A DNA stretch of 64,000 nucleotides, taken from IMG/VR virus record IMGVR_UViG_3300022890_000011, positions 64,001 to 128,000 of that record, one strand, 5' to 3'. Made by a program: the position numbers and the translations under genes. The notes under the pieces were generated by a model. It ran no database searches. It saw only the letters and a program-made list of their open reading frames with translations, and was not told the origin of the DNA. The stretch comes from a virus. Position 1 is the stretch's first letter, and each line of letters begins with the position of its first letter. This document shows positions 1,449 to 42,431 of the stretch, one piece after another.

Positions 1449-2476
1449 TCCTCTTTTTTTATTCTATTATAATCAATTATAATATTTATTTTAAACAATA
1501 ATGGTTGCCTTTGTTTTTTGGTTAATAATAAACCTTTGTTCTTTATTCTTATGATTTCTCCATTTTTTGTTTCTTTTGGAATAGTAAATTTATATTTTTT
1601 ATTGTCTAAATGTTTATGTTCATACTTATATCCATTAATAGCATCTTCATAATGTACATCTAATTGATAAATTAAACCATTTTTTAAAGGTTGATATTTT
1701 TCATCTGGAATATAATTAATAAGTAAAACTAAATTACCCACTTTACCTGGATAGTATTTAGAATGATGTCCATAACCTGATAAATATTCTTTACTTGAAC
1801 CTGTTAATTTGTATATATTATCTAAATTAAATTTAACTTGTTTTATTTTTACTTTATCACCGTTACAAGTTTTACAAGTGTCTGTAAAAATTTTTCCTAT
1901 ACCTTGACATTGAGGGCATTGTACGATCATTCTAGTTCCTTTAAATTTTGGGTCTTGTCCAGTGCCATCACAAACTTCACATATTTCTGAATGACCATTT
2001 TTATCAAACCCTGTTCCATCACAATCTTCACAACTTATATATCTTTGATAATCTACTTCAGTTGTTTTATTATTATAAACATCAGCAAGAGTTACATCAA
2101 TTTGTTGTTGTATATCTAAATCTTCTCTAAATCCTTGTTGATCTCTAAAACCTCTATTACCACCAAAAAATGAATCAAAAATATCTTGTGGACTTCCACC
2201 AAATGGATTAAAACCTCCACTACCTGGAAAACCAAATCCTCCCGTTGGGTTATAATTTGCACCATGGGGACTCATCATATCATACTGTTCTCTATTTTTA
2301 TTAAGAATAGTATTAGCTTCGTTAGCTTCTTTGAATTTTTCTTCTAATTCTTTGTCACCTTTTGTTTTGTCTGGATGATATTTTACAGCAAGTTTTCTGT
2401 AAGCTTTTTTAATATCTTCTTCTGAAGCGTCTTTTGTAACATCTAATATTTTGTAATAATCTTTATTTGGATCCAT
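1445..2476 (-). CDS. dnaJ: DnaJ/Hsp40 co-chaperone
   Basis: J-domain with HPD, G/F-rich linker, four CxxCxGxG-type Zn-finger repeats, C-terminal substrate-binding domain. Confidence 0.95.
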   Translation of the reverse strand: MDPNKDYYKILDVTKDASEEDIKKAYRKLAVKYHPDKTKGDKELEEKFKEANEANTILNKNREQYDMMSPHGANYNPTGGFGFPGSGGFNPFGGSPQDIFDSFFGGNRGFRDQQGFREDLDIQQQIDVTLADVYNNKTTEVDYQRYISCEDCDGTGFDKNGHSEICEVCDGTGQDPKFKGTRMIVQCPQCQGIGKIFTDTCKTCNGDKVKIKQVKFNLDNIYKLTGSSKEYLSGYGHHSKYYPGKVGNLVLLINYIPDEKYQPLKNGLIYQLDVHYEDAINGYKYEHKHLDNKKYKFTIPKETKNGEIIRIKNKGLLLTKKQRQPLLFKINIIIDYNRIKKED

Positions 2477-27516: not shown

Positions 27517-27699
27517 ATGAGGAAGAAGATCCCAGATGAGAAAAAGAAGAAAAAAACTGCTGTTTCTATTGACAAGGAATTATCAATTATTTTAATAGAT
27601 TTTTTAAAAGATAAGAATTTAAAAAGATCTAAATATATAGAAAATCTTATCAGAAATGATATGGAAAAACGAGGCAAGGGAATAGAAAGGGAATTCTAA
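27517..27699 (+). CDS. Ribbon-helix-helix protein
   Basis: KTAVSIDKEL...KRSKYIENLIRND; close paralog of 57284..57466. Confidence 0.7.
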   Translation: MRKKIPDEKKKKKTAVSIDKELSIILIDFLKDKNLKRSKYIENLIRNDMEKRGKGIEREF

Positions 27700-27721: not shown

Positions 27722-30700
27722 ATGGAAGTATATAACGTAAAATATTATAAGAGTGGAATTTATGAAGGTATATACACTTTAAAAATAGAAGAAGAAGTTG
27801 TGTCTGGTCTTTTAATAGGCAATCATCAAGTAACACCAAGTGAAATAAAACATAAATTTACATTAATTAAAGATGATAATTTAATAGATGAATATTTAGA
27901 TCAATGGGAATCAAACTACATTTTTAAAAATGACCGAAGTAATAGAGATATTAGATTTGAGAATCAATTTTTAGAAGTTGAATTGACAAGACCTATTTTA
28001 AAATCTATTTGTGAAGATGTTGATAACGGTGTTTATGAATATGAATATCAACAAGATTATTACTCAATGAATTTTGATGTTGATAAATATCAAAAGTATC
28101 TTATTAGAAAAGAAAGAAAAAATAAATTAGATAGAATACGTGAATCCGATAAATAATTTTATTATGAGTCTTAATATTAAAGAAAAATATAATGATATTT
28201 ATAAGTTGATTTTAGAATATGATTTGAATATTTTATTAAAACCAAATAATTCAAATATTGAATTTGTTATTGAATATGATGGTTATCAAATAGAGATAAA
28301 ACAAGGTATAACTGAAAAAGAATTTCAAAAGAAAATTATAAAGTTTCTTAGAAAGATTAAAATGAAGAGGTTGAAAAGTGAATAGAGAGTTTTTAAATGA
28401 TAATAAACAATTAATCAGAGAATATTTGTGTGATTTATGTACTTGTGATGTTGATGTTATTGAATTTTTTTTATATCCTGAAGATGGTAGGTGGAGAGTT
28501 ATGTATATGAATATTGAACTTGATTATTTTAATTATGATAGGATAAAATTAAATGAAAATGATGTTATTAAATATATTAGGAAACGTAAAATAGAGAGGG
28601 TAAAAGACAATGATAACAAATGAACAATATCTTAGTACAAAGTATGGTAAGAAATTAATCGAAATTATTGAAGATGATGATGACTGTTGTGTTTATGTGT
28701 TAGATATAAATGGTATTATCATTGTTCAGAAGTTGGTTTTGTCAGATGAGGATAAAAAAGAGTATTTAAGAATTAGTAGAAAACTAAAATTAGAGAGGGT
28801 AAAAGATGTTTGATTGGAATATAGTTGATGATATGTTAGATCGGTTAGATTTACACATGAGTATTATAAATTTTAATGGTAATGATAATATAGTTTTTCA
28901 GTATAAGGTTGAAAAAATAAGTACTAAAAATATACGGAAATTTAATTCTGATCATGATTTATTAAAATATCTTCAAAGATTAGAACGAAAACTTAAATTA
29001 GATAGAGTTAATGATAAATAGAGAATATTATTTTGATGAATTATGGCCTGAAAAACCTTTGCCATCACCACAAGGAAAAATAATATATCTTGATTATGTA
29101 TATCCTAATTTTAATATAATAGAAATAGAGAAAAACATAATAGAAAGGTTAAATGGAAAACTGGATTGAAGTAAGTGATAGATTAGATACAAAGACGAAA
29201 TATATTTAGTATTGGAGTATGTAGGTAATTCTAGAATAGATGATTTGCCAATTTATAGAATTGGATATAGTAATATTTTGTGTAATACAAATGAATTAAA
29301 TAAATATATTAGATATAATTATGTCAAATCCATTTCTGAGGCTCATACTAACATTACTAGTATTGAGCAAAATGTGATACGTAGATTCACTTTAAATAAT
29401 ATGATTATTAAGATTTATAAATATAATAAAGATGTACTAAATGAAAATTAAGGAAATAACAAAAGAATTGATGACTGAAGCATTTCAAGAAATTCTTAAA
29501 AAATATGATTTAAATGATATTGTAAATGGCGATTTTAAAGAAATGGGATTTGTAATGGATTATCCAGTTAAACTTAATGAAGAAGTTGAAGAGGATGATT
29601 TATATACTATTATAGAGGAAGAAATTATTGAAAAGTTCAAAGATAGATCTGGAATGAAAGAAAAGATTAAAGAAATTAAACGTAAAGAAAGGAAAGATAA
29701 AATTGAGAGACTTAGAAACGAGTAATTTATTAGATATTTATAATTATTGTAAGAGTTATTTGGATGACACATTTTCAGTTTTACAATTAATTAAATCATA
29801 TTGTGTTATTCAAAATAAAGAGTTATTTTTAACAATGAATATTGATGATAATGCATTTGAAAATTTAAGTGAAAAAGTACGATATATTTGTGAGAAGGTT
29901 ATTTCTAAAATTTATCCATCTTTTGATTTAAATCTTATAACTATAAATATAACAAAATCTGATTTTGATTCGATAAATGTTGATTTTGAGTTTAATAAAC
30001 CGGTTCTTAAAGATGCATTATGTAAAGAATTTACATCTAAGGAGTTTATTAGATTAGATAGAAAACGTAAACTTAAAAGAGTTAAATATGGAAGATAATT
30101 TAATATTTGTAGAAGGATATGTTATTAAATATTTACATGATAATATTAATATATTAAGTAATGAGTTAAAAGTACAATTAAATTATTTAGATTCTCAGAA
30201 TTTGAAATATTTTTTTGAGATTATAATTAGTGGTGGTGCTTATTCTTTGCAAGTTAATGAAATGGATTGTAACTTAGAATTTATACCAGATAAAGAATTT
30301 TTAAGATATGTTAGAAAAGAAAAACTAAAAAGAATTAAAGATGCTAGATAAAGATATTATATTATTAATGATTCAATATACTGATAAACAAATTGATGAA
30401 AAATTTAATGAATGTGAAATTGATTTACCAACTGAATCTTTAGAATATAATTATGAAGTTGATTTAGTTAAATCTAAAATAGAGAGATTAAATAGATTAC
30501 AAGAGTCAATTGTAGAAGCTAAAGAAGTATTAAATTATAGATTAACTGAAAATAAATTGACAAATGAATCTATAATTAATTGTTTAGTAGAATGTGAAAG
30601 AATAGACGGTTCTGTTTATTGTAATTATCATTCATTTGATTTTGATGAAAAGAGGTATAATAGAATTATGAGAAAATTAAAATTGAAAAGAGTTAGAGGA

Positions 30701-31153
30701 ATATGAATCAGAAAATAGTTAATAAATTAAATAAAGCTGCTCATAAATTACATCAAAGGTCAATGTACGGTGCAGCTAATCATATTATAGTTAGCGAAGA
30801 ATATATGGAAGTTGTTCAATTGATGTTTGATATTCAAACAATAGAACAAAATATAATAGAAAGATTAAATGATAAGTGGAACAGTGATTAAAAAGTATAA
30901 AGAATTAGGTATTAGGTCTATTATGATTAATGGTAATGATACAATGTTTGTTTATATTGATGATTGGTATTTATTTAAAGATTGGTGTGATTTTCCATTC
31001 ATGGTTATTTCTACTGAAAAAAATTGGAATATGAATTCAATAACCAACAATCCTTGGAGTATTCAAATAGAAGATCCTGAAACTAAATTAAAACTTTTTG
31101 ATAGAAAACTCAGGAAGTTAAAAATAAAAAGAATTAAAAATGAAGAAATTTAA
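27722..31153 (+). CDS. Array of about 13 small unrelated ORFs, 10 ending in an RKxKLxR[VI]-type tail
   Basis: e.g. RKNKLDRI, RKRKIERV, RKLKLERV, RKLKLDRV, RKRKLKRV, RKEKLKRI; overlapping stops and starts. Confidence 0.7.
29011..29169 (+). CDS. 52-aa ORF (not in track) with a major-capsid-like motif
   Basis: PLPSPQGKIIYLDYVY followed by IEKNIIERLN. Confidence 0.5.
   Translation: MINREYYFDELWPEKPLPSPQGKIIYLDYVYPNFNIIEIEKNIIERLNGKLD
30703..30891 (+). CDS. 62-aa ORF with a major-capsid-like motif
   Basis: KLNKAAHKLHQRSMYGAANHIIVSEE followed by IEQNIIERLN. Confidence 0.5.
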   Translation: MNQKIVNKLNKAAHKLHQRSMYGAANHIIVSEEYMEVVQLMFDIQTIEQNIIERLNDKWNSD

Positions 31154-31316
31154 AGTAACAAAAGGCAACGGAGAACCAGTAATCATGGAAGAAACTGAAA
31201 TTTATCCTATGATAGAACAAAGATCATCAGCATTTGCTGGTATGTTAAAAGGATTAAAGGTTGGAGAAGGAGTATATTCTAATGATACAATGACAAATTT
31301 CGAAAGAGTGGAATAA
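31140..31316 (+). CDS. 58-aa hypothetical ORF (not in track)
   Basis: MKKFKVTKGNGEP...FERVE*; fills the gap, coupled at both ends. Confidence 0.5.
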   Translation: MKKFKVTKGNGEPVIMEETEIYPMIEQRSSAFAGMLKGLKVGEGVYSNDTMTNFERVE

Positions 31317-31723
31317 TGAAACAGAATATTGAAATAGGAAATGGTCGAAGTTATCATGTTGACACATTTGACATGGTGGCTGATCCTTCTTTTAAAAATT
31401 CTACTTTAGGAGAAATTGAACATCCTGTACTATCATATACAGAACATTTAGCAAATTGTATTGAAACTAATATTTCATATAATGAGTATATCGTAGAACG
31501 AACGAAAATTAATATACCATATAAAGATAAACAAATATGGAAACCGTTGATTGAAGATTATGTTGATAAACCGTGTTCTTCTTTTTGTCAAGAAAAATTT
31601 TTCAAACAACCAATTAATTTCATTAAAAGTTTTTTTGTTAAAGAAAAAGTTGATTTTTCAATTAAAGATATTAGAAATAATGTTGAAAGAAATAGAAAAG
31701 AAATAAAAAACTTAGAATTATAA
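31316..31723 (+). CDS. Hypothetical protein with prohead-protease-like motifs
   Basis: TFDMVADPSF and LGEIEHP, then SYTEHLA...ISYNEYI. Confidence 0.45.
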   Translation: MKQNIEIGNGRSYHVDTFDMVADPSFKNSTLGEIEHPVLSYTEHLANCIETNISYNEYIVERTKINIPYKDKQIWKPLIEDYVDKPCSSFCQEKFFKQPINFIKSFFVKEKVDFSIKDIRNNVERNRKEIKNLEL

Positions 31724-32118
31724 TGGATAAGAATATTGAAGATTTACAAAAGAAATTAGAACAGTTCGGTATGTTATCTGAACCTAAAATAGAACACAAA
31801 GAAGAAAATATTCCACTTGAAAAAAAGTATATTTTTGCTGATGATAAAAATGCAATAATAGTTTCTTCTTCTAAGAAAGAATTTTTTAGAATTACCAATG
31901 AAGGTGAATTTATAGTTAATGGTGAAAAAATTGATGTAGATAAAGAATTTATACAATCTTTCACAATTGTATTAGAAGAGTTATTAGGAGAATCTCATGG
32001 TGAAATGATGAAAAGAGTTCGCAGAGAAGCAAGACAGGATGTTATTAAAGATTTAGAAAGATTATATGAGGATATAGATGAAATATTAATTAAAGAATTA
32101 ATTGAAAAATGGAAATAG
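31723..32118 (+). CDS. Hypothetical protein
   Basis: EFFRITNEGEFIVNGEKI. Confidence 0.5.
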   Translation: MDKNIEDLQKKLEQFGMLSEPKIEHKEENIPLEKKYIFADDKNAIIVSSSKKEFFRITNEGEFIVNGEKIDVDKEFIQSFTIVLEELLGESHGEMMKRVRREARQDVIKDLERLYEDIDEILIKELIEKWK

Positions 32119-32188
32119 AAAAATTTTTTATATTTTAAAATTTTTGTATTTTGAAGAAAATAGATTTTTAATTTAAAATTATAGAAAA

Positions 32189-32680
32189 ATGTCAACATTA
32201 TTATTATGGTGTACAATTATTGCATCAGCTTCAATATTATCAATTATTATAGGATTTATTATAGATGATGAAAATTTTATTTCTTTTGGTATAGCTTTTG
32301 CTTTTATTATTGGTATTCTTGGATTTGCTATTTTGGCAAATTGTCTTACAAATAAGATGGTAACTACTGAAATATTTCCAAAAGTTGTCATAGAAAAAAA
32401 TGTTAATGTTATCACAGTTATTTGGAGTCATGATGAAATTCAACATGAAACTAAATATTTTGATGAAATTAATAAAATAAATGAACATACAAAATGGACA
32501 ATGATTGAGAAATTCAATCATTATGGTTCTTTTAATGGATCTTATATTAAGTATGAAACACCTATAGAATATATTTATGCAGATACATCAAATGTCGAAA
32601 TAATACAATTTCAAAAAAGCCCACCAGATAGTATTAAAAAAGAGATTAAGTTGAATAAGCCTAATATTATGATAAAATGA
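32189..32680 (+). CDS. Membrane protein with two N-terminal TM helices
   Basis: Two hydrophobic segments; same architecture as 33658, 36822 and 37349. Confidence 0.6.
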   Translation: MSTLLLWCTIIASASILSIIIGFIIDDENFISFGIAFAFIIGILGFAILANCLTNKMVTTEIFPKVVIEKNVNVITVIWSHDEIQHETKYFDEINKINEHTKWTMIEKFNHYGSFNGSYIKYETPIEYIYADTSNVEIIQFQKSPPDSIKKEIKLNKPNIMIK

Positions 32681-32879
32681 TAAATCTTAATAAACCAGAA
32701 TATATTCAACATAAAGAATATATTATAAAAGTATCGGATATTTCTGCATTGAGATTTATATTATCTAGTGGAAAGAAAGAAGAATGGAGTGTTAGTAGTA
32801 ATGAATATGAAATATGTAAAAAGAAATTAATAAATTTATTAGAACCAGTTGATTTGGGTGATCTTTAAAACAAATATAA

Positions 32880-33270
32880 ATGAATATATCTGTATCAAAT
32901 AAAAAAGAAGGTTGGTTTATTAATCTATATATTAATGTACCTTATGATAGGATTTCAATAATGGTTTCTGATATAACTGAATTATATTTTCAAGGTGCAA
33001 AGATTAATACATATCCTGATTATTTTAAAAATGAATTTGATTTTGTTAAGAAAGTAAGAAAGTTTAGAGATAGACTTAAATATATTAAAACTGAGAATTG
33101 GGGTATGACCGAAGAATATTATTTTAAAGATGGTGAATTACATAGGTTATGGGGACCTGCGATTGAATATAAATAGAGGTGAAATTAAAACGAAAGAAGA
33201 ATATAGTAAAATGCCTGAAGTACAAAGATTTACAAGAAAATTAAAATTAGAAAGAGTAAGGAGAAAATAA
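32880..33270 (+). pseudogene. Frameshifted gene with LHRxxGPA motif and RK tail
   Basis: LHRLWGPAIEY then a shift near 33170 to ...FTRKLKLERVRRK*. Confidence 0.55.
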
Positions 33271-33572
33271 TGGATGGATATTATCTAGAAGTAAAAAATA
33301 AAGATGAATCAATAGCTTTTCAAGATGTTTGTCGTGAATTAGGTTATGATTGGTTTTTAACAACAAATAAAAATGTAGAAGATAATTATTATATTGTTCC
33401 AAATTATCCTTGTGTAATGTTTATGCAATCTAAGAATATGTCATTAAGGTGGTGTAGTGTGGAATTTTGGAATAGTTCGAGTTTAAAGCCTTATTATACA
33501 TCTACACAAGAATGTAAAGAATATATGAGAAAATTAAGAAAATTAAAACTTTGGAGGGTAAAAGAATGTTAG
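33270..33572 (+). CDS. Hypothetical protein with RK tail
   Basis: Ends LRKLKLWRVKEC*. Confidence 0.55.
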   Translation: MDGYYLEVKNKDESIAFQDVCRELGYDWFLTTNKNVEDNYYIVPNYPCVMFMQSKNMSLRWCSVEFWNSSSLKPYYTSTQECKEYMRKLRKLKLWRVKEC

Positions 33573-33657
33573 TAATGAATATTATAGCTATAGTAATAGT
33601 ATGTTATTTAGTTAGTGATTATGAAATAAAAGATTTATTAAATTTAAAAGGGAAAAA

Positions 33658-34095
33658 ATGACGTTAGGAATATTAATTTGTAGTGGTTTAACATTACTTG
33701 GGATTATAATATTAATTATAGGAATTGTAAAAGGTTATAAAGGTGAAGGTAAACAAATAGTAGGAACTGTGATATTAGTATTAACTGGTTTTATAGGATG
33801 GGGTGTTTGTAATATTGAATGTGTATCTAAAAAAAATATTGAAAAAATTGATGTTGAAGTTGTCATGACTAGTAAATCAGCAATAGTTGAATATATGTAT
33901 GATGATAGACTTAGACAAAAAGTTTACGAAAATGTTGCAGAATATACTATGATTAGAGATTATGAACTTGAATGGACTATAACAACTAAATATAATCAAT
34001 ATAGTTATGAATCATTTGGAAGTCTCGATTATAGTGTTATTGAAAAGAAAGAAAAAAAGGAAGAAAATAAAGTTAAATCTAATAATTTACAATGA
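33658..34095 (+). CDS. Membrane protein with two N-terminal TM helices
   Basis: Two hydrophobic segments then a soluble domain. Confidence 0.6.
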   Translation: MTLGILICSGLTLLGIIILIIGIVKGYKGEGKQIVGTVILVLTGFIGWGVCNIECVSKKNIEKIDVEVVMTSKSAIVEYMYDDRLRQKVYENVAEYTMIRDYELEWTITTKYNQYSYESFGSLDYSVIEKKEKKEENKVKSNNLQ

Positions 34096-34797
34096 ATAAT
34101 TCTACAAATTTTTTAGCTAACATTTCACCTAATGAAGATGAATCGAAAATAAGATTATTTGAGTTATTTAAAGAATCTTGTGATTCAAATTCTAAATTAA
34201 TTGATATTGTTAACAATGGTAATTTTAGAGATGAAAATAATGTTTGGAAAATTGGTTTAGATAAGTTACCAAAAATACGAGAATATCGTGGATATAAATG
34301 GAATAGAAAAGATGACGTTAAATATACTTATTCTTCTATGAAGAGGTTTAGATTTGCTGATAATGAAACATTAGATATAATTGCCTGTTATTATAATTAT
34401 GCTGAACAATATATTATAAAAGAGAAATATAGGAAATTACAATTCTTTGGTCTTTGGCACATTGATTCTGTTAGAAGTGTAAATATATTTGATAAATTAA
34501 AACCAGTTGTAGAAGATTTGATGCCAATTATGAAATCTGAATATTCTAAATACAATTATGAAATCTGAATATTCTAAATACAATTGGGAAACTGAATATC
34601 AGAAATATGGAACAGATGCATATCAAGAAATATATTTTGGTTGTAAAAAATATTATTTAGAATATGATAAATTATATTGTGAAATTAGTAAAGGAGAATT
34701 AGATTGTCTTAATGAATATTATGAAAATGGTATTAAAGATATATTATTTGAAAAATTAGAAAGAAGATTATATAAATTAAAGAATGAACAGGATTAA
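34092..34797 (+). pseudogene. Single gene split in two by a 28-bp tandem duplication
   Basis: caattatgaaatctgaatattctaaata occurs twice (34525-34580); removing one copy fuses 34092..34568 with 34558..34797. Confidence 0.7.
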
Positions 34798-35077
34798 AAG
34801 TTTTTTACGATATAATTTTTCGAATAAAAAGAAAGTACGAAAATACCTTGGAGGTTATTGGGAATATTGGACTGTTAATGAATTTGGTGAATTGTGGTTA
34901 AAAGTTTCAGAGAAAAATGCTTTTAAAAAAGATTATAAACCTCCTCTTGATAGAGAAACACCATATTGTGAATATTATGATATAGGTTTTTTTGGTAATA
35001 AGAGGGAATTAACTGATAAAATGTTAAAAAGATTAGACAGAAAAAGAAAATTAAAAAGAGTAAAAAATGAAAATTAG
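34784..35077 (+). CDS. Hypothetical protein with RK tail
   Basis: Ends DRKRKLKRVKNEN*. Confidence 0.55.
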   Translation: MNRIKSFLRYNFSNKKKVRKYLGGYWEYWTVNEFGELWLKVSEKNAFKKDYKPPLDRETPYCEYYDIGFFGNKRELTDKMLKRLDRKRKLKRVKNEN

Positions 35078-35393
35078 AAGTGGTTTTGTAAGTAATTCTT
35101 CAAGTAGTTCTTTTATAATTGAAAGAAAGAATCTTACTAAGAAACAAATAAGTAAGATTAAAAATCATATTGATGAACATAATAAAATGGATCCTTTGGA
35201 TCAATATAATCATTGTGATGGATGGTCTATTTATGAAAATTTACCAGAAGGTTATAGTGAATATGATGATAAAGTAAAAAGAAAATATCGTCAAGGACAT
35301 ATTGAAGGGTATTGTAACATGGATAATTTTAGTATGTATAGTTTTCTGGAAGAAATAGGTGTGCTTGATAATGATATTAATTGGACATATTAA
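35067..35393 (+). CDS. MKIRxGFVSNSSSSS-leader protein 1
   Basis: MKIRSGFVSNSSSSSFII; MDNF motif shared with 40301..40753. Confidence 0.75.
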   Translation: MKIRSGFVSNSSSSSFIIERKNLTKKQISKIKNHIDEHNKMDPLDQYNHCDGWSIYENLPEGYSEYDDKVKRKYRQGHIEGYCNMDNFSMYSFLEEIGVLDNDINWTY

Positions 35394-35437
35394 TTAAACA
35401 ATTAAGAATAAAAATCATAAAAAAAGAAAAATTAAAT

Positions 35438-35743
35438 ATGAAAATTAGAAATGGATTTGTAAGTAATTCTTCAAGTAGCTCATTTGTCATAATTGGATTT
35501 ATTCCTACAAAAGATGAATATGAAAAGTATGAGGAACAATTAGAAGATTTTGATCACACTTGTGAATCTTTTGACAATGGTGATGCGTATGGATTTTTTA
35601 TTGCAGTAGATGATGGAGAAGGTGACCAAGTAGAGAGTGAGATTGATTTTGATCAAATCACAAAATGGAGAGATGAACTTATTGAAAAGTTTGAAATTGA
35701 TGAAGAAAGAATTAAGTTATATTCAGGTATAATGATGTCTTAA
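35438..35743 (+). CDS. MKIRxGFVSNSSSSS-leader protein 2 (start 35438 rather than 35381)
   Basis: MKIRNGFVSNSSSSSFVI; acidic body. Confidence 0.75.
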   Translation: MKIRNGFVSNSSSSSFVIIGFIPTKDEYEKYEEQLEDFDHTCESFDNGDAYGFFIAVDDGEGDQVESEIDFDQITKWRDELIEKFEIDEERIKLYSGIMMS

Positions 35744-35799
35744 ATGAGATAAATTATGATTAAAAAAGAAGATTTAGAATTAAAAAATAAATAAAAAAT

Positions 35800-36306
35800 A
35801 TGAAAATTAGAAATGGATTTGTAAGTAATAGTAGTTCCAGTTCATATATATGTGATGTGTGTGGACATGATGAATCAGGTTGGGATTTGTGTTTATCAGA
35901 TGCAGAAATGGTAGAATGTGCATCAGGACATGTAATGTGTTGTTCGCATGTTGAAGCAACAAAAGCCGAAATATATATTGCTATGGTTGAAGAAGGAATA
36001 GAAAAATATGGTAATACATATGATCATGAAGATAAATTGAAAGAAATTCAAGTTATTGAAGATGAAAAAGAAAGAGAAAATTTTTGTAATGATGCTTTAT
36101 ATGAAACAGATTGGGAATATTCTTTTCCTTCAAAATTGTGTCCTATTTGTTCATTAAAGCAAATAAATGATAGTGAATTAGTACAATATTTAAAACATGG
36201 TGTAGGAATTGACATGGATTCTGTTATGAAAGATATGCGAAGTAAGTTTAAGGATTATGATGAATTTCAAACATTTTTAATAGAAAGGAGGAAAAATGAA
36301 AATTAG
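35800..36306 (+). CDS. MKIRxGFVSNSSSSS-leader protein 3, Cys-rich Zn-binding body
   Basis: Leader then CDVC...CASGHVMC...CPIC. Confidence 0.75.
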   Translation: MKIRNGFVSNSSSSSYICDVCGHDESGWDLCLSDAEMVECASGHVMCCSHVEATKAEIYIAMVEEGIEKYGNTYDHEDKLKEIQVIEDEKERENFCNDALYETDWEYSFPSKLCPICSLKQINDSELVQYLKHGVGIDMDSVMKDMRSKFKDYDEFQTFLIERRKNEN

Positions 36307-36829
36307 ATTAGGATTTGTAAGTAACAGTAGCTCAAGTAGTTATATTTGTGATATTTGTGGTGAAGATGCAACAGGTTATGATATTTCTTTAGAAGAATAT
36401 GAGATGTATGTTTGTAAGAATGGTCATGTTTTTTGTGAAGAACATATGAAAGTTATTCCAACAAATATTGAATTATTAAAAGTTATTTTTGAAGGTGAAG
36501 TGAAAAAGTATAAAAAATGGCTTGAAGATAATCCTGGTGAAGATTATGAAAAATGGTTAAAAGAGGCTGAAGATAATATTAATGAATTGAATACTCTTTC
36601 AGAATCTGAAATTGAAAAAAAAGTAGATGATGAATGGTATGATTATATTAGTGAATCAAGGTATGAATATCCTCCTAAATATTGCCCGTTGTGTAGATTT
36701 GATTATTTATCAAAAAAAGATGTTTATGAATATGTTGATAAGAAATATTCAATAGAGAAAGTTAAAAAAGAAATCAATGAAAAATTTGATAATTATGAAC
36801 AATTTAAAAACCATTTAAAAAATGATTAA
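36296..36829 (+). CDS. MKIRxGFVSNSSSSS-leader protein 4, Cys-rich Zn-binding body
   Basis: Leader then CDIC...CKNGHVFC...CPLC. Confidence 0.75.
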   Translation: MKIRLGFVSNSSSSSYICDICGEDATGYDISLEEYEMYVCKNGHVFCEEHMKVIPTNIELLKVIFEGEVKKYKKWLEDNPGEDYEKWLKEAEDNINELNTLSESEIEKKVDDEWYDYISESRYEYPPKYCPLCRFDYLSKKDVYEYVDKKYSIEKVKKEINEKFDNYEQFKNHLKND

Positions 36830-37768
36830 TACACTAATACTTGGAGGATTTGCCATAATATTGACTTATTGTGGAATTATGCTGTTTATAAATGCAAAGA
36901 AACGAAATGATGAGTGGGCTGCATTTCATGGTATTTTGTCATTAGTTGTCATAATATTTTTTCTTGTCTTTGGAAATGTTAAAATATACGAACATGAAAT
37001 AGATATAAGCGATAAATGTATTATGTTTGATATTAATAATGGTGTTTGTGTTGAATATCAAGGTGTGTATTATACAGATAAAAGTGTTTCTGCTAGAAAA
37101 TATAAATACGATTCACCAACTGTCATATTACATGATACATATACATTATTTTCAGATTCTAAGGATCAAGAAAATTATATAAAAATAAAACCTAATAAAA
37201 AGAAAAAGAAAGTAAATGAAAAGAAAGTAACAGATAAAGTTACTGATAAATGGCCATCGGATACTATCGGGGACTTTAATAAGGAACAAAAAGTAAATTC
37301 TGAAAATCAGAATTTTAAGAAAAATATAACAACTTTAAATTAAAAAACATGTTTTTAGGATTTTCAATAATAATAATATTATTCTTTGCAATTTTATTTA
37401 TTTTTTCTATAAAGAAAAATTATGAAGGAAATGTAGTTTATTCTAGTATATTTGGTGTGATTTCAATAATTTTTTTAACATGTGCATTATTTGTATTACC
37501 AGTTAAACAAGAACTAATAATATTAGATGAAAGTGAATATTTATATGAAACTTTTATTGAAAATGGAAAATTAAATGTAGAAATCGAGTGGAAAAATAAA
37601 AGTTTTTTCACTAAATCAGGGGTTGGTTATTTAGAAGGTGATTGTGAAGTAATTTTAATTCGAGAAATATCATCATTCGGCACCACCATTAATATATATG
37701 ATGATTACATTTTATACATAGTTCCAAAAGAGAAATTAGAAAAAGTTAACGATAAATATAAAAAATAA
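36822..37768 (+). CDS. Two membrane proteins with N-terminal TM hairpins (36822..37343, 37349..37768)
   Basis: Paired hydrophobic segments. Confidence 0.55.
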
Positions 37769-38787
37769 TGAGTCATTTTACAGTCCTAGTAATAGGAGAT
37801 AACCCAGAAGAACAACTAGCACCATTTCAAGAAAACAATATGGATGATTGTCCAAAAGAATATTTAGAATTCTATGAAACAGAATTAGGATATCAAGAGG
37901 AATGGGATTTAAACGAACTCAAGATCAGAAAACATTATCCAAATAAAAAAATTGATATCACGGAAGATCAACTTGAGCAATTGTGTGTAAAAGGCACAAT
38001 TAATATGGAGAAAGAATTTGAATCATGGAACAAAGTTAATGAAAATGATATTTGTGAACTTAATTGTAATCAAATAGTGAGTTTTGGTGTTGTTAAAGGT
38101 ATTTTATTTGATGAAGAAAGCAAACTTCAAAATTTTGTAATTATTCAAATGGAAAATAAAGAGAAAACTATTCAAGAACAGTATGGTACTTTTGAAAATT
38201 TTGTTTCTGAATACCATGGATTGTCTGAAAGAGATTCAGAATATAATAGATATGGTTATTGGGAAAATACTAGAGCTAAATGGGATTGGTATGAATTAGG
38301 TGGTAGATGGAGTGGTTTTTTTAGATTAAAAAATGGTTCGCATGGAAGTTTAGGTAGACCAGGTGTATTTGATAATATTCCTGAACATGGTACAGTGGAT
38401 CAAGCTTATAAGAAGGATATTAATTTTGATTTAATGAGAACAGAAAATTTTGAAAGAGCTTCAGAAAAGTGGGAAAAATGGGAAGAATTGAATAATTCTA
38501 ATACAGAAGACGCAAAAAATAAAGCTTATTGGTCATTTGGTATTATTAATATTGGAGATAAAGATAATTTTATACCAGAAGATAAAATAAGTTATTTGAA
38601 AAGACAAAGTAATATAAACACATTTGCAATTTTAAAAGATGGTGAATGGTATGAAAAAGGTGAAATGGGTTGGTTTGGTATGTATAATGATGAAATGAGT
38701 GAAGATGAATGGGGAGAAAAATTTGATGAACTTTTAGTTAATTTAACAGGTGACACATTACTTAGCGTATATGATTGTCATATTTAA
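37768..38787 (+). CDS. Conserved phage hypothetical protein (Trp-rich)
   Basis: MSHFTVLVIG...AKWDWYELGGRW...GEWYEKGEMGWFG...YDCHI*, a pattern recalled from uncharacterised large-phage proteins. Confidence 0.6.
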   Translation: MSHFTVLVIGDNPEEQLAPFQENNMDDCPKEYLEFYETELGYQEEWDLNELKIRKHYPNKKIDITEDQLEQLCVKGTINMEKEFESWNKVNENDICELNCNQIVSFGVVKGILFDEESKLQNFVIIQMENKEKTIQEQYGTFENFVSEYHGLSERDSEYNRYGYWENTRAKWDWYELGGRWSGFFRLKNGSHGSLGRPGVFDNIPEHGTVDQAYKKDINFDLMRTENFERASEKWEKWEELNNSNTEDAKNKAYWSFGIINIGDKDNFIPEDKISYLKRQSNINTFAILKDGEWYEKGEMGWFGMYNDEMSEDEWGEKFDELLVNLTGDTLLSVYDCHI

Positions 38788-38852
38788 AAATATAAAAATA
38801 TGAGAGAAAAAGATTATAAACAAGTATCATTTCAAAATAAGTTAAAATTATA

Positions 38853-39113
38853 ATGGAGATTTATAAATCATTTTGTATAGATAAAATAAGTAGAACTTTG
38901 GTTGGTTATAATAAAATTTGTATAGTTCATTTTATGATAGATTCTGTTTTAATAGGTTATTATAAAGGTTGTCATACTTATCCATTTAATGTTGATCAAG
39001 GTGCATATGTTATGGAAAAAATGTCATTTCTTGATTTAATACTTAGATTTGAAATTGATGCTAAAGATTATGTACCTGAATTAATTGAAGGCAATAAAAT
39101 GGATTTATTATGA
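38853..39113 (+). CDS. Hypothetical protein with KLGL-type tail
   Basis: Ends EGNKMDLL*. Confidence 0.5.
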   Translation: MEIYKSFCIDKISRTLVGYNKICIVHFMIDSVLIGYYKGCHTYPFNVDQGAYVMEKMSFLDLILRFEIDAKDYVPELIEGNKMDLL

Positions 39114-39562
39114 AAAGATTATTTATTATAAGACACGGAAAAGCAGAAGATCACGATCAATCAGATTTTGAAAGATCTTTAACAAAAAAAGGCAAAAGGG
39201 TTAGTAGAGAAGTGGCTAAATCGTTATATAATGATGGATACCAAATTGATAATTTTATTACGAGTCCTGGTTTTAGATCATTAGAAACTTGTATAATATT
39301 TGCAGATGAATTTGGTTATAATGTTGAAGATATAATAATTAATAGTGATTTATATTTTAATGTTACAACTAATGAATATCAAAATATTTTTGACCAATGT
39401 CCGGGTTCTGATAATATTGCTATAGTTGGACATAATCCGTTTTTATCATTTTTAGTTCATCATCTAACTGGTAAAATTGTTAATATGATTAAAAGTGGAG
39501 TGTCAGTTATAGAATTTAATGATGGTATGACAGAAGCTAAATTAATTTTATATAAAAACTAA
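39110..39562 (+). CDS. sixA: SixA-like phosphohistidine phosphatase
   Basis: IIRHGKA, DFERSLT..G, SP..RS.ET, IVGHNP. Confidence 0.88.
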   Translation: MKRLFIIRHGKAEDHDQSDFERSLTKKGKRVSREVAKSLYNDGYQIDNFITSPGFRSLETCIIFADEFGYNVEDIIINSDLYFNVTTNEYQNIFDQCPGSDNIAIVGHNPFLSFLVHHLTGKIVNMIKSGVSVIEFNDGMTEAKLILYKN

Positions 39563-39634
39563 TGAAAATAACAAAACAAGAAGGTGGAGATATAGAATAT
39601 CAAATTGAAGAAGATATAATCGAATTAATTAAAG

Positions 39635-39985
39635 ATGAAAATTAGAAAAGGATTTGTGAGTAACAGCTCATCAAGTAGTTATATTTGTGATATTTGTGGT
39701 GATGCTTTTGAAATGTGGGATGAGTCTCCTACTTCATGTGAATATGGTCATTATTTTTGTTATGATTGTATTCCAGATAACTGTGAAGGTGAAGGAAGTG
39801 TTGAAGAAAAGGATTGTCCTTATTGTTCATTTGAGAAAATTTCAGAATATGATTTTAATAATTATATTTTAGCTAAATATAATTTAAATAAAGGAGATAT
39901 TGAAAATGAAATTTATGAGAGATTTGAGAACTTTTCAGAATTTATAATTTATATTAACGAAAATAAGAATAGAAAATGCGATTAG
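39635..39985 (+). CDS. MKIRxGFVSNSSSSS-leader protein 5, Cys-rich
   Basis: Leader then CDIC...CEYGHYFCYDC...CPYC. Confidence 0.75.
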   Translation: MKIRKGFVSNSSSSSYICDICGDAFEMWDESPTSCEYGHYFCYDCIPDNCEGEGSVEEKDCPYCSFEKISEYDFNNYILAKYNLNKGDIENEIYERFENFSEFIIYINENKNRKCD

Positions 39986-40311
39986 AAAATTTAGAAACAA
40001 GAGTAATTGGTTATATTGGTGTAGATGCAGGTATTGTGTGGATTGGAGACCCATGTTATATAATGCATAAAGATAAACCTTATAAATCTATTGGTAAAGA
40101 TTGGGGTGATTTTTGTGATAAACTTGGTGATAGTTATGTTAAATCATTTAATTATGACATGGGGCACGAGGGTTTAGGTGTTTGTACATCTACTAAACAC
40201 GGTGATGGTCATTATCCAGTTATCGGGTTTTTTGAACCAGGTGCACAAAGACCATCATGTGTAATGGTTGATTTTGATAACATTTTTAATAACGAAGAAG
40301 ATGAAGATTAG
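39976..40311 (+). CDS. DUF4241-like hypothetical protein
   Basis: GVDAGIVWIGDPCY...GDGHYPV. Confidence 0.5.
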   Translation: MRLENLETRVIGYIGVDAGIVWIGDPCYIMHKDKPYKSIGKDWGDFCDKLGDSYVKSFNYDMGHEGLGVCTSTKHGDGHYPVIGFFEPGAQRPSCVMVDFDNIFNNEEDED

Positions 40312-40753
40312 AAGTGGTTTTGTAAGTAATAGTAGTTCATCATCTTTCTTAATTTTAAAAGAAGGATTAAGTGATGAACAAATTAGTTCTGTGATAGAAC
40401 ATAAGAAACATGCTGATAATTATTTTAATAGTAATGATAGATTAACTGATGAATATCATGAGAATGAAGAAGATGGTTATTCACCTTTTCATCAATTGTA
40501 TGGATTTTGGGATATAGATGGTTATGATGTGTGGAATATAGAAGATCATTTAAATTATATATTAACTGAAAATGGTATGGATAATTTTGATTTGATGAGT
40601 TTTTGTATTGATATATTTAATATACCAAAAGATAATATTTATACGGTTGAAAGTGATATGTATTATTATATTAATGATGTAGATAGTTTTGTAAAACAGA
40701 CAATTACAGAAAGTCGTAAAAATAAACTCGAAAGAGTAAAAAATAAAAAATAA
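40301..40753 (+). CDS. MKIRxGFVSNSSSSS-leader protein 6, also carrying an RK tail
   Basis: MKIRSGFVSNSSSSSFLI ... SRKNKLERVKNKK*. Confidence 0.75.
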   Translation: MKIRSGFVSNSSSSSFLILKEGLSDEQISSVIEHKKHADNYFNSNDRLTDEYHENEEDGYSPFHQLYGFWDIDGYDVWNIEDHLNYILTENGMDNFDLMSFCIDIFNIPKDNIYTVESDMYYYINDVDSFVKQTITESRKNKLERVKNKK

Positions 40754-40756
40754 AGA

Positions 40757-41242
40757 ATGGGAACGAGAAGTTCAATTGCAATTAAAACAGAAGATGGTAC
40801 ATATAAAGGAATATATTGTCATTGGGATGGTTATTTAGACCATAATGGTATTATACTATATGAATCTTATGACACTTATGAAAAAGTACTTGAATTAGTA
40901 AATTTAGGTGATGCTTCATCTTTAGATCATAGTTCTAAATTAGTTGAAGGACATACATATGATACAAAAAAAGAAGGATGTTCCACATTCTATCATCGAG
41001 ATAGAGGTGAAAAATGGGAGGATGTTGCTCCAAAAGAGTTCGATACATATAAAGAATTGTTAGATTATTTAGGTCAAGGATATGATTATATTTTTGAAGA
41101 TGGTGAATGGTATGATAATGGAAAAGGTAAATTAGAGGATTTACTTATTAATACTGAACATGCTTCAAGAGTAAAGGAATTAAAGAAAAAGAGAATACAA
41201 ACAGATAGAAAACTTAAAATAGAGAGAATAAATGAAGATTAG
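40757..41242 (+). CDS. Conserved phage hypothetical protein with RK tail
   Basis: MGTRSSI...IYCHWDGY...FYHRDRGE; ends DRKLKIERINED*. Confidence 0.6.
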   Translation: MGTRSSIAIKTEDGTYKGIYCHWDGYLDHNGIILYESYDTYEKVLELVNLGDASSLDHSSKLVEGHTYDTKKEGCSTFYHRDRGEKWEDVAPKEFDTYKELLDYLGQGYDYIFEDGEWYDNGKGKLEDLLINTEHASRVKELKKKRIQTDRKLKIERINED

Positions 41243-41792
41243 AAGTGGTTTTGTAAGCAATAGTAGTTCATCATCTTTCATATTAAGAAAAGATGATTAT
41301 TTTCCTGATTCATATAGCTTAGCGGCTAGCATGATAAAAGTTAGAGAATGGAATAATGATGGTGAACTAGTTGATAAATTAATTAGTAAAGTGGAGGCTG
41401 GTGAAAGTTATCCTAATATTAGTTTTGCATCTTGTAATTATGATACGTTTATAGTTGATGAAGGAGATTATTTATTATGTGAAACTTGTAATAATCATGC
41501 ACATTGGAATATAACTGATTATGGTGATAATATTAGTTTTGCATCTTTACCAGAAGAAATAAGATTAAAATATAGTAGAGATGGTGATATGAATCTTACT
41601 GGAAAATATAGTGAAGAAGAAAAAGATTGTGATGAATTTTGGTTTGTAGAACATGATATAATTGGTAAATTAGCTTCTAAATATACTAATGGAAAATATA
41701 ATAATGATACATATTGTTCTGAATGTTATACTGATTATGTTGTAATTGATGGTGTTGCACAATGTCCAAGATGTAGAAAAGTAGATGAATAA
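41232..41792 (+). CDS. MKIRxGFVSNSSSSS-leader protein 7
   Basis: Leader; SCNYDT, TCNNH, C-terminal CSEC...CPRC. Confidence 0.75.
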   Translation: MKIRSGFVSNSSSSSFILRKDDYFPDSYSLAASMIKVREWNNDGELVDKLISKVEAGESYPNISFASCNYDTFIVDEGDYLLCETCNNHAHWNITDYGDNISFASLPEEIRLKYSRDGDMNLTGKYSEEEKDCDEFWFVEHDIIGKLASKYTNGKYNNDTYCSECYTDYVVIDGVAQCPRCRKVDE

Positions 41793-42431
41793 GTATTTTA
41801 AAGATATATTAAATAATTCTCAGTTTACAATGATATCAGGAAAAACTAATAGTGGCAAAACTAGATTTTTAATGTGGTTAGCTGCTTTATGTTCAGAAAA
41901 TAACAAGGTCTTATACATTTCTACAGAAATGAGTGAAAGACATGTTATTAATAATTTTTCACCATTATTGAATGTTGATTTACATAAAAAATGGATTAGA
42001 ACTGCTAGAAAACTTAAAATGGATAGAATTAAAGGTAATATCGAATATAAAAATATACCAGGTATTGTTATTAAACATACTCAATATGTTGATGATATTA
42101 AAAAATTGGTTGGTGATTATGATGTTGTTGTTATTGATTCTATATTAATTTAATATTGGAAAAAGATAGAAGGTTATATTCATATAAAGAACAAAATGAT
42201 TTTATTAATATATTTACGGGAAAAGTTATTATATCATCTCAATTATATAGAAATGGAGATATTTTAACATCTAGTTTTCCAATGAAATTGTTTACGAATA
42301 GTGATTCTGTATTTTCTATTGAAAAAGAAGATAATTTTTTATTAAGTAAGATTGAATGTCACAAAAATAGATATTTACCTATTGGTTTAGTACCTAAAAA
42401 ATTTGATTTATCAAAAATGAATTTTGTTTAA
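41785..42431 (+). pseudogene. DnaB/RecA-fold ATPase domain split by a frameshift
   Basis: GKTNSGKT, LYISTEM, VVVIDS, then (other frame) SSQLYR, SDSVF, KNRY; removing one AT from TATAT at about 42141-45 gives DSINLI and joins the two ORFs. Confidence 0.7.

Follow-up and report, generated by a model that had tools for sequence, protein, structure and literature searches.

Why should some fifteen small phage proteins with little else in common end in the same basic peptide? The question is raised by 64,000 nucleotides of viral DNA (positions 64,001 to 128,000 of IMG/VR record IMGVR_UViG_3300022890_000011; hereafter the window) from a large, uncultured phage whose host probably belongs to the phylum Bacteroidota. 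A model reading the letters and their ORFs had listed 15 ORFs ending in R-K-x-K-[LIM]-x-R-[VIL], together with one internal copy, and had suggested an address label. A six-frame regular-expression scan of the window for [RK][RK].[KR][LIMF].R[VILM] returned 16 matches, all on the plus strand and in frame with ORFs. Fifteen of them lie 3 to 6 residues ahead of a stop codon and account for all 15 listed ORFs; the sixteenth is the internal copy.

Occurrence of the tag in the phage genome

Ten of the tagged genes form one tandem array (27722-31153, plus strand), tightly packed and with no recognised virion gene among them. It opens with a 144-aa ORF at 27722..28156 (core RKNKLDRI, 28115-28138, 5 aa before the stop), followed by 28140..28385, which encodes 81 aa from a GTG or 73 aa from the ATG at 28164 (RKIKMKRL, 28350-28373) and retains its tag in the L049 orthologue, and by the 81-aa ORF 28378..28623 (RKRKIERV, 28579-28602), tagged also in its orthologues P0013 and P0015. 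Next come 28610..28813 (67 aa, g92778p; RKLKLERV, 28778-28801), 28806..29021 (71 aa; RKLKLDRV, 28986-29009) and 29441..29725 (94 aa with a very acidic body; RKDKIERL, 29690-29713). The array ends with 29703..30098 (131 aa from a TTG or 87 aa from the first ATG; RKRKLKRV, 30060-30083), 30088..30351 (87 aa; RKEKLKRI, 30313-30336), 30341..30706 (121 aa; RKLKLKRV, 30671-30694) and 30869..31153 (94 aa; RKLKIKRI, 31112-31135).

Five further tagged ORFs lie downstream on the same strand. The 46-aa ORF 33130..33270 (RKLKLERV, 33235-33258) overlaps ORF 32880-33176 in the +1 frame and is the copy first listed as 32880 after a frameshift; it is plausibly the C-terminal part of that gene, joined to it by frameshifting. 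It is followed by 33270..33572 (100 aa; RKLKLWRV, 33537-33560) and by 34784..35077 (97 aa; RKRKLKRV, 35039-35062), whose final codons overlap the start of a gene with an MKIRSGFV leader. The 150-aa product of 40301..40753 (RKNKLERV, 40715-40738) carries an N-terminal MKIRSGFVSNSSSSSF leader besides its C-terminal tag, and in the 161-aa product of 40757..41242 (RKLKIERI, 41207-41230) residues 1-123 match phrog_1987. The internal copy, RKLKMDRI at 42007..42030 on the plus strand, scores 25 bits against the tail profile and sits between the Walker A/STEMS segment and Walker B of a DnaB/RecA-like P-loop ORF (41785-42153).

The C-terminal position holds across the whole phage record (G000, 166,601 bp). 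When its 345 ORFs of at least 45 aa were scanned with the loose skeleton R..K[LIM]..[LIVM], 21 of the 26 matches fell 0-6 residues from the stop (binomial P = 2.7e-22), with both strands represented and no match at an N-terminus. A 21-column tail profile gave 19 matches at E <= 3e-4 and one more at E 0.04, including minus-strand copies and copies more than 60 kb apart. The tag is thus found on about twenty otherwise dissimilar small proteins, or ~8% of the phage's proteins; it is not on the phage's replication and repair enzymes, such as a 1248-aa SbcCD-like protein.

A portable helical tail

The motif is longer than the RKxKLxR[VI] of the original prediction. That core is present, but it belongs to a 16-residue block, K-x-[YF]-[LI]-R-x-x-R-K-x-K-[LIM]-x-R-[VIL]-[KR], with an N-terminal extension (K-x-[YF]-[LI]-R-x-x) and two to five cap-like residues (N, G, D or E) behind it. 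In the AF2 model of ORF 40757..41242 the tag is contained in a helix at residues 136-160 (mean pLDDT 96.5); that of ORF 28806..29021 consists of a helix, three strands and a long C-terminal helix with the tag, at residues 49-70 (mean pLDDT 84.5). The tag is predicted to form the distal half of a C-terminal α-helix of ~22-25 residues and to end 0-6 residues before the free C-terminus. Of the basic amphipathic helix proposed earlier, helicity is borne out by these models and amphipathicity is not, since the helical hydrophobic moment of the tail does not exceed that of shuffled sequences (mean z -0.34). The closest sequence resemblances in the PDB are the lipid-interface anchor peptide 1z2t (E 0.025) and the basic region of c-Jun (E about 0.5); all PDB matches of the tail are weak (E 0.025-0.6) and denote resemblance, not homology.

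The tag is modular. Neither BLASTP nor hhalign detected similarity among the tail-less bodies, so that the proteins are indeed unrelated at the sequence level, as had been claimed, although some array neighbours may share a small alpha/beta architecture. At least three architectures are tagged, the body types being a phrog_1987 domain, a small alpha/beta fold, an LRR-like repeat (in G001, by eye) and an MKIR-leader protein. The phrog_1987-type body of ORF 40757..41242 comes from a family with some 5,500 members, and among its 119 best homologues 118 lack the tail, the exception being a 59%-identical orthologue; the P-SSM2 and KVP40 homologues are tail-less too. Bodies and tails have median charges of -6 and +6, respectively, and tail net charge ranges from +3 to +9. 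No N-terminal signal peptide was noted on tagged proteins, and a crude hydropathy window flagged a possible transmembrane segment in two of them, g92778p and one from L022 of G003. The suggestion of an address label stands to this extent, that the tail behaves as a portable label on unrelated bodies and is conserved across distant phages.

These are distantly related low-GC giant phages. The same consensus occurs in the contigs G001, G002 and G003, although their ClpC-like protein and its counterpart here share only 48% identity; looser variants occur in G006-G009, and phages at a greater distance have K, A or N in place of the second Arg. A control giant phage, LR756501 (31% GC, 220 kb sampled), had no C-terminal and six internal matches to the loose motif, and the tag was absent from it in the profile search as well. 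No convincing counterpart turned up in 596 Gb of prokaryotic genomes, and we found no published description of the tag, which looks like an undescribed address or docking label.

Selection on the encoded peptide

The original prediction had read the varied Arg codons as a sign of protein-level selection, and both parts of that claim hold. The first invariant Arg is encoded by AGA (14), AGG (3), CGA (2) and CGT (1), and synonymous codon usage in the invariant columns equals that of the genome. Across conserved tag columns, identity at the three codon positions is 0.75, 0.89 and 0.66, the third position being lowest. Between orthologues (window versus L049/L050), tags show 25 synonymous and 19 non-synonymous differences in 96 codons, as against 49 and 126 in the 312 codons of the bodies, so purifying selection is stronger on the tail than on the bodies; AGA<->CGT and CGA<->AGA changes occur at invariant Arg positions. 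Codon usage, codon-position identity and orthologue differences all agree, and at four invariant positions Arg and Lys never replace each other in 31 proteins from at least three phages. By the test that the original prediction had named in advance, nucleotides more conserved than amino acids would have marked the tag as an initiation element for the following gene; they are not more conserved. Its further suggestion, that the tags provide short homology for shuffling the array, is unlikely, as the tags share on average only 60% pairwise nucleotide identity and exact runs of at most 15 nt, bar one pair with 23 nt.

Two readings would nevertheless dispense with a shared function of the peptide. 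The tag might be a cis element, either an RNA-level initiation or coupling signal for the downstream gene or a nascent-peptide pause that aids re-initiation at an overlapping start. In the array, most tagged genes do run 1-14 nt into the next start, and the AAA/AGA-rich tail supplies the A-rich, G-poor leader typical of the phage's start regions. Moreover, GAG is over-used at the variable acidic position of the tag (5/8 Glu codons versus 10% genome-wide), as is GTA at its Val position. However, the synonymous freedom described above is not what such an element predicts, this phage makes no use at all of Shine-Dalgarno sites, and the offset to the next start runs from -14 to +73 nt in this genome, some tags being separated from the following gene by 61-73 nt. 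Of the 11 tagged genes in G001-G003, six lack a same-strand downstream start that overlaps them, two of these six have no same-strand ORF within 360 nt, and some tags precede a gene 51-131 nt away or a tRNA-like sequence. The distance from motif to stop also varies from 0 to 6 codons, and one copy is internal. The cis reading is largely refuted, and we give it almost no credence. Alternatively, the tail could be a leftover without shared function, inherited by fast-diverging tandem paralogues or spread by recombination at shared junctions. The ten-gene array would suit this, as would the helix/beta-strands/helix layout that several 67-87-aa members could share (by eye) and the repeated junction of about 75 nt formed where some tags abut the MKIR leader of the next gene. 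We judge such a history highly improbable, because clearly different bodies are tagged, the tail is so rare among the homologues of one of them, copies lie far apart on both strands with short exact runs in common, selection on the tail exceeds that on the bodies, and the consensus persists in phages with a much-diverged ClpC-like protein.

Candidate readers of the tag

Several known systems offer partial parallels. The CTS of T4 internal proteins and Alt is an N-terminal peptide of about 10 residues whose last residue is Glu and which the prohead protease cleaves. It too is a short terminal peptide that serves as an address label on otherwise unrelated phage proteins, whereas the present tag is a C-terminal, 16-residue basic helix on small soluble proteins and has no L/I-x-E cleavage context. 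In eukaryotic cells and their viruses, the F-box proteins and the poxvirus PRANC module, which is C-terminal on ankyrin-repeat proteins, combine a conserved terminal module with varied binding bodies. The tag is likewise lineage-specific and multi-copy in one viral genome, and one G001 body looks LRR-like by eye; it shows no sequence or structural similarity to the F-box, which has about 50 residues and reads Skp1. Local sequence is nearly identical to c-Jun SRKRKLERI and c-Myc KRVKLD, also basic helices, but the tag lacks a leucine zipper and the bZIP N-x7-R, and the phage has Bacteroidota-type features; this likeness is most likely convergent.

Such resemblances bear on a third possibility, that the positively charged helix is an anchor to nucleic acids (DNA or RNA), to ribosomes or to the anionic inner membrane face, so that numerous small phage proteins would gather on a single extensive surface that cannot be saturated. 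The charge of the tail fits, as does its likeness to the c-Jun basic region/NLS and to alMGS peptide 65-87 (1z2t, segment FVKRYVRKMRKLKL), with which it shares the spacing of K, Y, V, R, R, K, L, K and L over 12 residues; like this peptide and MinD/FtsA-type helices, the tag is terminal, basic and helical. One copy lies inside a DnaB/RecA-like ATPase, and a large surface would have room for 8-24% of a proteome. On the other hand, the tag has no hydrophobic face, with 3-5 hydrophobic residues, and by its hydrophobic moment is no classical amphipathic membrane helix; the strict R/K identity is not expected of a generic polyanion binder, acidic bodies would be repelled by polyanions, and the PDB matches are resemblances. 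We regard this anchor as possible but unlikely.

Rather unlikely, in our estimation, is a degron or tether that delivers to an AAA+ unfoldase-protease (the phage ClpC-like/ClpP pair, the AAA-M41 fusion, or host ClpXP, Lon or FtsH) either the tagged proteins themselves or the targets captured by their variable bodies, resulting in timed removal of tagged proteins or adaptor-mediated destruction of host proteins. Basic C-terminal signals for ClpX exist (C-motif 2, as in MuA ...RRKKAI), and the SspB XB peptide (...LRVVK) is a short C-terminal tether for adaptor docking; both are 5-8 unstructured residues at the very end. As in these peptides, through which many proteins engage one machine, the tag has an L-x-R-V-K-like ending, and it is strictly C-terminal even where no gene follows. 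Among the phage's own genes are those for a ClpC-like unfoldase, without the adaptor-binding N-domain but with the IGF ClpP-docking loop, for a ClpP (located just beyond the window) and for an AAA-M41 protease whose HEAGH site is intact; besides, a processing machine can serve many different clients without becoming saturated. Against this, the 0-6 residues that follow the tag vary and are frequently acidic, a misfit with signals read together with the alpha-carboxylate, and a stable predicted helix with ~16 conserved residues is longer and more structured than typical degrons. Co-occurrence with phage proteases is inconsistent: LR756501 has a ClpC-like gene but no tag in the profile search or in the 220 kb sampled, and AAA-M41 was not found in the tag-bearing contigs G001 and G002, which is a weak point as both are fragments.

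We favour, with a probability of about 0.55, a portable trans-acting protein module that serves as an address or docking handle on many unrelated, small, soluble and mostly acidic proteins. Docking is what we infer from geometry and conservation. In the 21-column alignment, K4, [LI]7, R8, R11, K14, L15 and V18 would share one face of the helical wheel, their conserved spacing (i, i+3/4, i+7) probably producing a mixed basic and hydrophobic stripe. Together with the lack of R/K interchange, a stripe on one face fits docking at one specific reader site better than generic electrostatics, although replacement of the second Arg in distant phages suggests that recognition may be less stereospecific than it looks in this phage. 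A further point against is that, if 8-24% of a proteome is tagged, a stoichiometric protein hub would be saturated; a reader in the form of an extended surface or a processing machine would then be likelier. On the docking reading the partner, whether of the host or conserved among the phages, would most likely be a protein whose groove is both acidic and hydrophobic. The tag may thereby bring about 8% of the phage's proteins to one common partner, where they could be co-localised, tethered as adaptors, or handed over for turnover.

Occurrence and distribution of the C-terminal tag

A six-frame scan of the window for the motif [RK][RK].[KR][LIMF].R[VILM] gave 16 matches, all 16 on the + strand and in frame. 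All 15 ORFs listed in the original prediction bear the motif 3-6 residues ahead of the stop codon, and the same scan recovered the single internal copy, in a P-loop ORF. When the whole record (G000) was searched with a 21-column profile of the tail (alignment A1), 19 matches were obtained at E <= 3e-4 and one more at E 0.04, including two minus-strand genes and copies 9-37 kb beyond the window. Among the 345 ORFs of G000, the loose skeleton R..K[LIM]..[LIVM] lay 0-6 residues from the stop in 21 of 26 matches and was N-terminal in none (P = 2.7e-22), and a count of C-terminal 5-mers in G000, made without any prior motif, placed RKLKL and KLERV in the top ranks. The full conserved region, K-x-[YF]-[LI]-R-x-x-R-K-x-K-[LIM]-x-R-[VIL]-[KR] with a short N/G/D/E-rich stretch after it, is longer than the motif first proposed; R11, K12, K14 and R17 (alignment numbering) never vary. 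The 5-mer count also revealed a second, unrelated class of C-terminal tag (...ENPDLHNANKMGL[LY] / NKLGL; ..NANKMGLL), which ends at least 10 ORFs of G000 outside the window, so that several terminal tags are in use by the phage.

The IMG/VR record, of which the window spans bases 64,001-128,000, comprises 166,601 bp at 25% GC, with an estimated CheckV completeness of about 58%. Two of its genes (2601-6653 and 6677-10159) encode giant proteins that combine SprB repeats and PKD domains with a CHU_C signal for type IX secretion; it also carries a TnpB/IS605 OrfB-like gene with OrfB_IS605 and Cas12f1-like TNB domains (62078-63301 of the window) and a CTP synthase gene. Shine-Dalgarno sequences were not enriched (an SD-like 4-mer at 9 of 157 starts against a background of 5.9%, for ORFs of at least 120 aa in the whole record), and the 25 nt 5' of starts consisted of 45-68% A and 3-13% G; A-rich, SD-less initiation is the Bacteroidota style. 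Taken together, the SprB/CHU_C genes, the other gene content and the SD-less, A-rich starts suggest a large phage that infects Bacteroidota. Gp23 (PF07068) had no match in the record, and likewise none in the control genomes; we therefore do not call the phage T4-like. Scans for sigma-70 promoters and terminators and for the T4 late-promoter motif TATAAATA gave counts at chance level.

The distribution of the tag was examined in IMG/VR by exact-pattern scans and then by profile searches. The same consensus, 2-5 residues before the stop, was found on about a dozen further proteins of contigs 3300023257_000007 (348 kb), 3300022868_000009 and _000015, which have 22-26% GC and an estimated completeness of about 48%, implying genomes near 700 kb; the ClpC-like protein of these three contigs is only 48% identical to that of G000. 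A looser form, R-K-x-K-L-x-[RKAN]-I, occurs in four further low-GC giant-phage contigs, with seven C-terminal matches and no internal match in one 14-kb stretch. The control was the giant phage LR756501 (735 kb, 31% GC), which shares with G000 an SbcCD-like protein at 44% identity: the 220 kb sampled held no C-terminal and six internal skeleton matches, and the tail profile had no match in the whole record. Across 596 Gb of prokaryotic genomes there were 52 chance-like matches, of which nearly all lay out of frame or within very short open frames, and no tagged host protein was found with the AGR-only Arg pattern used, which would miss high-GC cellular copies. A protein database search with the tail alignment, limited to 8,000 candidates, returned, among the matches listed, mainly the phage's own proteins and two orthologues. 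Neither blastn of the tandem tagged array (27722-31153) against GenBank phages nor an IMG/VR search for related loci with the SbcCD-like protein yielded anything.

Conservation of the peptide and of its DNA

The original prediction had read the varied Arg codons of the tag as a sign of selection on the protein, and four concordant results bear this out, nucleotide conservation not exceeding that of the amino acids. R11 is encoded by AGA in 14 tags, AGG in 3, CGA in 2 and CGT in 1, with a genome AGA share of 80%, and synonymous codons in the invariant columns follow genome usage. Leu is encoded by TTA, CTT, CTA, CTC and TTG, and the hydrophobic columns show L/I/M and V/I/L swaps that arise through changes at all three codon positions. 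Mean pairwise nucleotide identity between tags is 60% over 48 nt; in the conserved columns, identity across tags is 0.75, 0.89 and 0.66 at codon positions 1, 2 and 3, respectively. When orthologue pairs were compared with the related, syntenic metagenomic contigs L049 and L050, the 16-codon tags differed by 25 synonymous and 19 non-synonymous changes over 96 codons, and the bodies (the tail-less remainders) of the same pairs by 49 synonymous and 126 non-synonymous changes over 312 codons. Even the invariant Arg positions showed AGA<->AGG, CGA<->AGA and AGA<->CGT changes between orthologues.

An inter-gene nucleotide element, such as an initiation or coupling signal or a PeSL-like recombination cassette of T4-type phages, would be conserved as DNA, but codon position 3 is the least conserved. 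Such an element would also keep a constant spacing to the downstream start, but the offset from tagged gene to next gene start ranges from -14 to +73 nt in G000, and 6 of 11 tagged genes in the related tag-bearing contigs G001-G003 have no overlapping downstream start, two of these having no same-strand ORF within 360 nt. A tRNA-like sequence (GCAGTAGCTCAATAGGTAGAGCA...) comes immediately after one of the six, at 1501-1830(-) of locus L024 (G002:C1:34556-37612). The AAA/AGA-rich tail does suit the A-rich leaders favoured by the phage, and there is a mild nucleotide overlay, GAG being over-represented among codons for the variable acidic residue and GTA among those for Val, which cannot account for the motif. 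A cis-element serving the downstream gene is largely excluded, as is the reading of the shared tail as a historical remnant. An integron attC-like or hairpin DNA site was rejected, inspection by eye revealing neither a conserved GTTRRRY core nor a palindrome in the tag DNA.

Tagged proteins and the structure of the tail

The tag is a module attached to unrelated bodies, as had been proposed. BLASTP of the tail-less bodies found no similarity except for one weak pair, and profile-profile comparison of three array neighbours, with shallow profiles, gave probabilities below 1%. Pfam and PHROGs searches of 20 tagged proteins returned only phrog_1987, for ORF 40757-41242 (residues 1-123), and a match to the leader alone of ORF 40301, which begins with MKIRSGFVSNSSSSSF. 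Other bodies include a small helix/three-strand/helix fold in the AlphaFold2 model of ORF 28806 and, in a related phage, a 218-aa protein that by eye has an LRR-like repeat pattern. About 5,500 proteins make up the phrog_1987-type family; of the 119 best homologues, P0016, the 59% identical orthologue of ORF 40757, is the only one to have the tail, and the homologues of cyanophage P-SSM2 and vibriophage KVP40 end directly after the globular domain. Foldseek found no match to the ORF 40757 model in the PDB at E <= 0.001. An obvious N-terminal signal peptide is lacking in the tagged proteins, a crude hydropathy window flagged only two as possibly membrane-spanning, and median net charge is -6 for the mostly acidic bodies and +6 for the tails.

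Further shared elements were observed around the tagged genes. Eight ORFs (starts 35067, 35438, 35800, 36296, 39635, 40301, 41232 and 42858) open with a near-invariant MKIR[NSLK]GFVSNSSSSS[FY] leader and then diverge into bodies of which several are Cys-rich; PHROGs matched the leader alone (phrog_7397, residues 1-18). ORF 40301 has both this leader and the C-terminal tag, so the two labels are combinable. Untagged small ORFs within the array (29011-29169, 29212-29451 and 30703-30891) share the motif [IL]E[KQ][NR][IV]I[ER]R[LF](N/D)GK, near the C terminus in two and internally in one, and the motif is kept in an orthologous contig (L049:758-940). Immediately 5' of the array, a 60-aa ORF (27517-27699) resembles by eye a ribbon-helix-helix (CopG/Arc-type) DNA-binding protein, and its product is a possible array regulator.

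The internal copy scores 25 bits against the tail profile (E 4e-6 for the genome) and lies inside the fold of P-loop ORF 41785-42153, between the Walker A/STEMS segment and Walker B; this ORF matches DnaB, KaiC and RecA-type ATPases. The copy may be a true handle on the ATPase or may have arisen by convergence. The DnaB/RecA-like gene (41785-42431) appears to be split at 42153/42156, because ORF 41785-42153 ends with Walker B at a TAA and the DnaB-like '...IISSQLYRN' motif resumes in another frame from 42156, which could reflect a frameshift, a pseudogene or an assembly error. Another possible frame change lies at 32880-33270, where a tagged 46-aa ORF (33130-33270) overlaps by 47 nt, in the +1 frame, ORF 32880-33176, which by eye has a MORN/YwqK-like 'HRxxGPAxEY' repeat; the junction ...TAT AAA TAG AGG... 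may mark an error or a site of +1 frameshifting.

The original prediction had pictured the tail as a basic amphipathic helix, of which the helix stood and the amphipathicity did not. AlphaFold2 models of ORF 40757 (mean pLDDT 96.5; one unbroken helix at 136-160, tag at residues 151-158) and ORF 28806 (mean pLDDT 84.5; helix 49-70, tag at residues 61-68) place the tag in the distal half of a long C-terminal helix, and the conserved [YF]-[LI] pair of the proximal half is probably packed onto the body. When plotted on a 100-degree helical wheel, K4, [LI]7, R8, R11, K14, L15 and V18 fall within one 120-degree sector, forming a mixed basic/hydrophobic stripe. Over 31 tags, the mean hydrophobic moment was 0.27, no greater than in shuffled tails (z = -0.34), and basic residues lie all round the helix, which is thus not of the classical amphipathic type. 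Coiled-coil self-association was rejected, as the a/d positions would be R/K.

Known signals and candidate readers

The tag lacks the defining features of the T4 capsid-targeting sequence, terminal degrons, amphipathic membrane-targeting helices, bZIP basic regions and nucleotide inter-gene elements. The T4-type capsid-targeting sequence is N-terminal and has an (L/I)-x-E context for cleavage by the prohead protease, whereas here 21 of 21 terminal copies are C-terminal, none starts in the first 12 residues, and no equivalent of that context is conserved, the conserved Leu being followed by E, K, D, W, L or N. The ClpX C-motif-2 and ssrA-like degrons occupy the last ~3-8 residues including the free carboxylate; the tag core, in contrast, stops 0-6 residues short of the C terminus, and what follows it varies and is frequently acidic. 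The amphipathic membrane-targeting helices of MinD, FtsA and alMGS are alike in helicity but have the segregated hydrophobic face that the tag is without. In bZIP proteins, the basic region has an N-x7-R/K signature and is followed by a heptad leucine zipper, whereas the tag has no upstream conserved Asn and, since the protein ends 0-6 residues past it, no zipper. A positively charged C-terminal tail is common to the tag and the Arg-rich VirB/D4 type IV secretion signal, which works with a coupling protein and a secretion apparatus; we rank this reading low. A nuclear localization signal of a virus of eukaryotes was rejected, because the record encodes TnpB, ClpC/ClpP and proteins with SprB/CHU_C type IX secretion domains, and its SD-less, A-rich starts follow the Bacteroidota pattern. 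No Pfam, PHROGs or PDB family explains the tag, and a full-text literature search found no description of such a tag. We place it with the shared terminal address or docking peptides, as an apparently undescribed one.

The tag is conserved at the protein level, helical, modular, C-terminal and specific to this phage group. Our preferred reading is that it would be a handle for docking or addressing, recognised by a single shared partner, because its conserved residues form a one-sided stripe, Arg and Lys are strictly distinguished, and the tag is conserved across distant phages. The reader might conceivably be one of the machines originally named, the phage ClpC or the AAA-M41 protease. The phage Clp system looks complete, with a ClpC-like unfoldase (49199-51205) and a ClpP gene ~240 nt past the window end (G000:C1:128236-128757). 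The unfoldase is 65% identical to cellular ClpC and keeps the IGF loop at residue 530; its match begins only at about residue 175, so that the adaptor-binding N-domain (~170 residues) is lost. A ClpC-like gene is, however, also present in LR756501, tagless by profile and in the 220 kb sampled, and complex prediction for the ClpC-like protein with a tagged 71-aa protein scored 0.00, a 'no answer' that speaks neither for nor against binding. The AAA-M41 fusion (44229-46508) combines a soluble AAA+ module with an M41 (FtsH-type) peptidase, its HEAGH site intact, and a ~250-residue insertion, but it was not found in the tag-bearing contigs G001 and G002, which are fragments. The tail may instead anchor its clients to a polyanion, binding DNA, RNA or membrane: so many clients would call for a non-saturable target, and the tail weakly resembles a lipid-interface anchor peptide (PDB 1z2t, E 0.025) and, over 10 residues, the c-Jun basic region (E about 0.5).

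Taking the docking handle further, we tentatively propose, at a probability of about one in five, that giant low-GC Bacteroidota phages have a protein-sorting code of their own, in which the C-terminal helix, carried by ~8% of the proteome in this phage, would be the 'zip code' by which a dedicated putative receptor gathers diverse small binder or effector proteins at one site, either an unfoldase-protease or a phage-built compartment or assembly. If this is true and the site is the unfoldase-protease, the tagged proteins would be substrate adaptors that can replace one another, the phage counterpart of F-box/PRANC proteins.

Shared terminal peptides are a means of protein sorting in cells and viruses. 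Phage examples are, to our knowledge, very few, with the T4 capsid-targeting sequence as the classic one; nucleus-forming phages are not known to rely on a simple linear signal for protein import. The tag described here is a compact, readily recognisable helix at the C terminus, and selection clearly acts on it at the protein level; about 1 in 12 proteins of the phage carry it, and it is found again in several uncultured phages of very large size. The identity of its reader would give a first functional handle on dozens of 'hypothetical' small phage proteins together, would yield a 16-residue portable tag usable in Bacteroidota, and would reveal in what arrangement or at what times giant phages deploy their host-takeover proteins.
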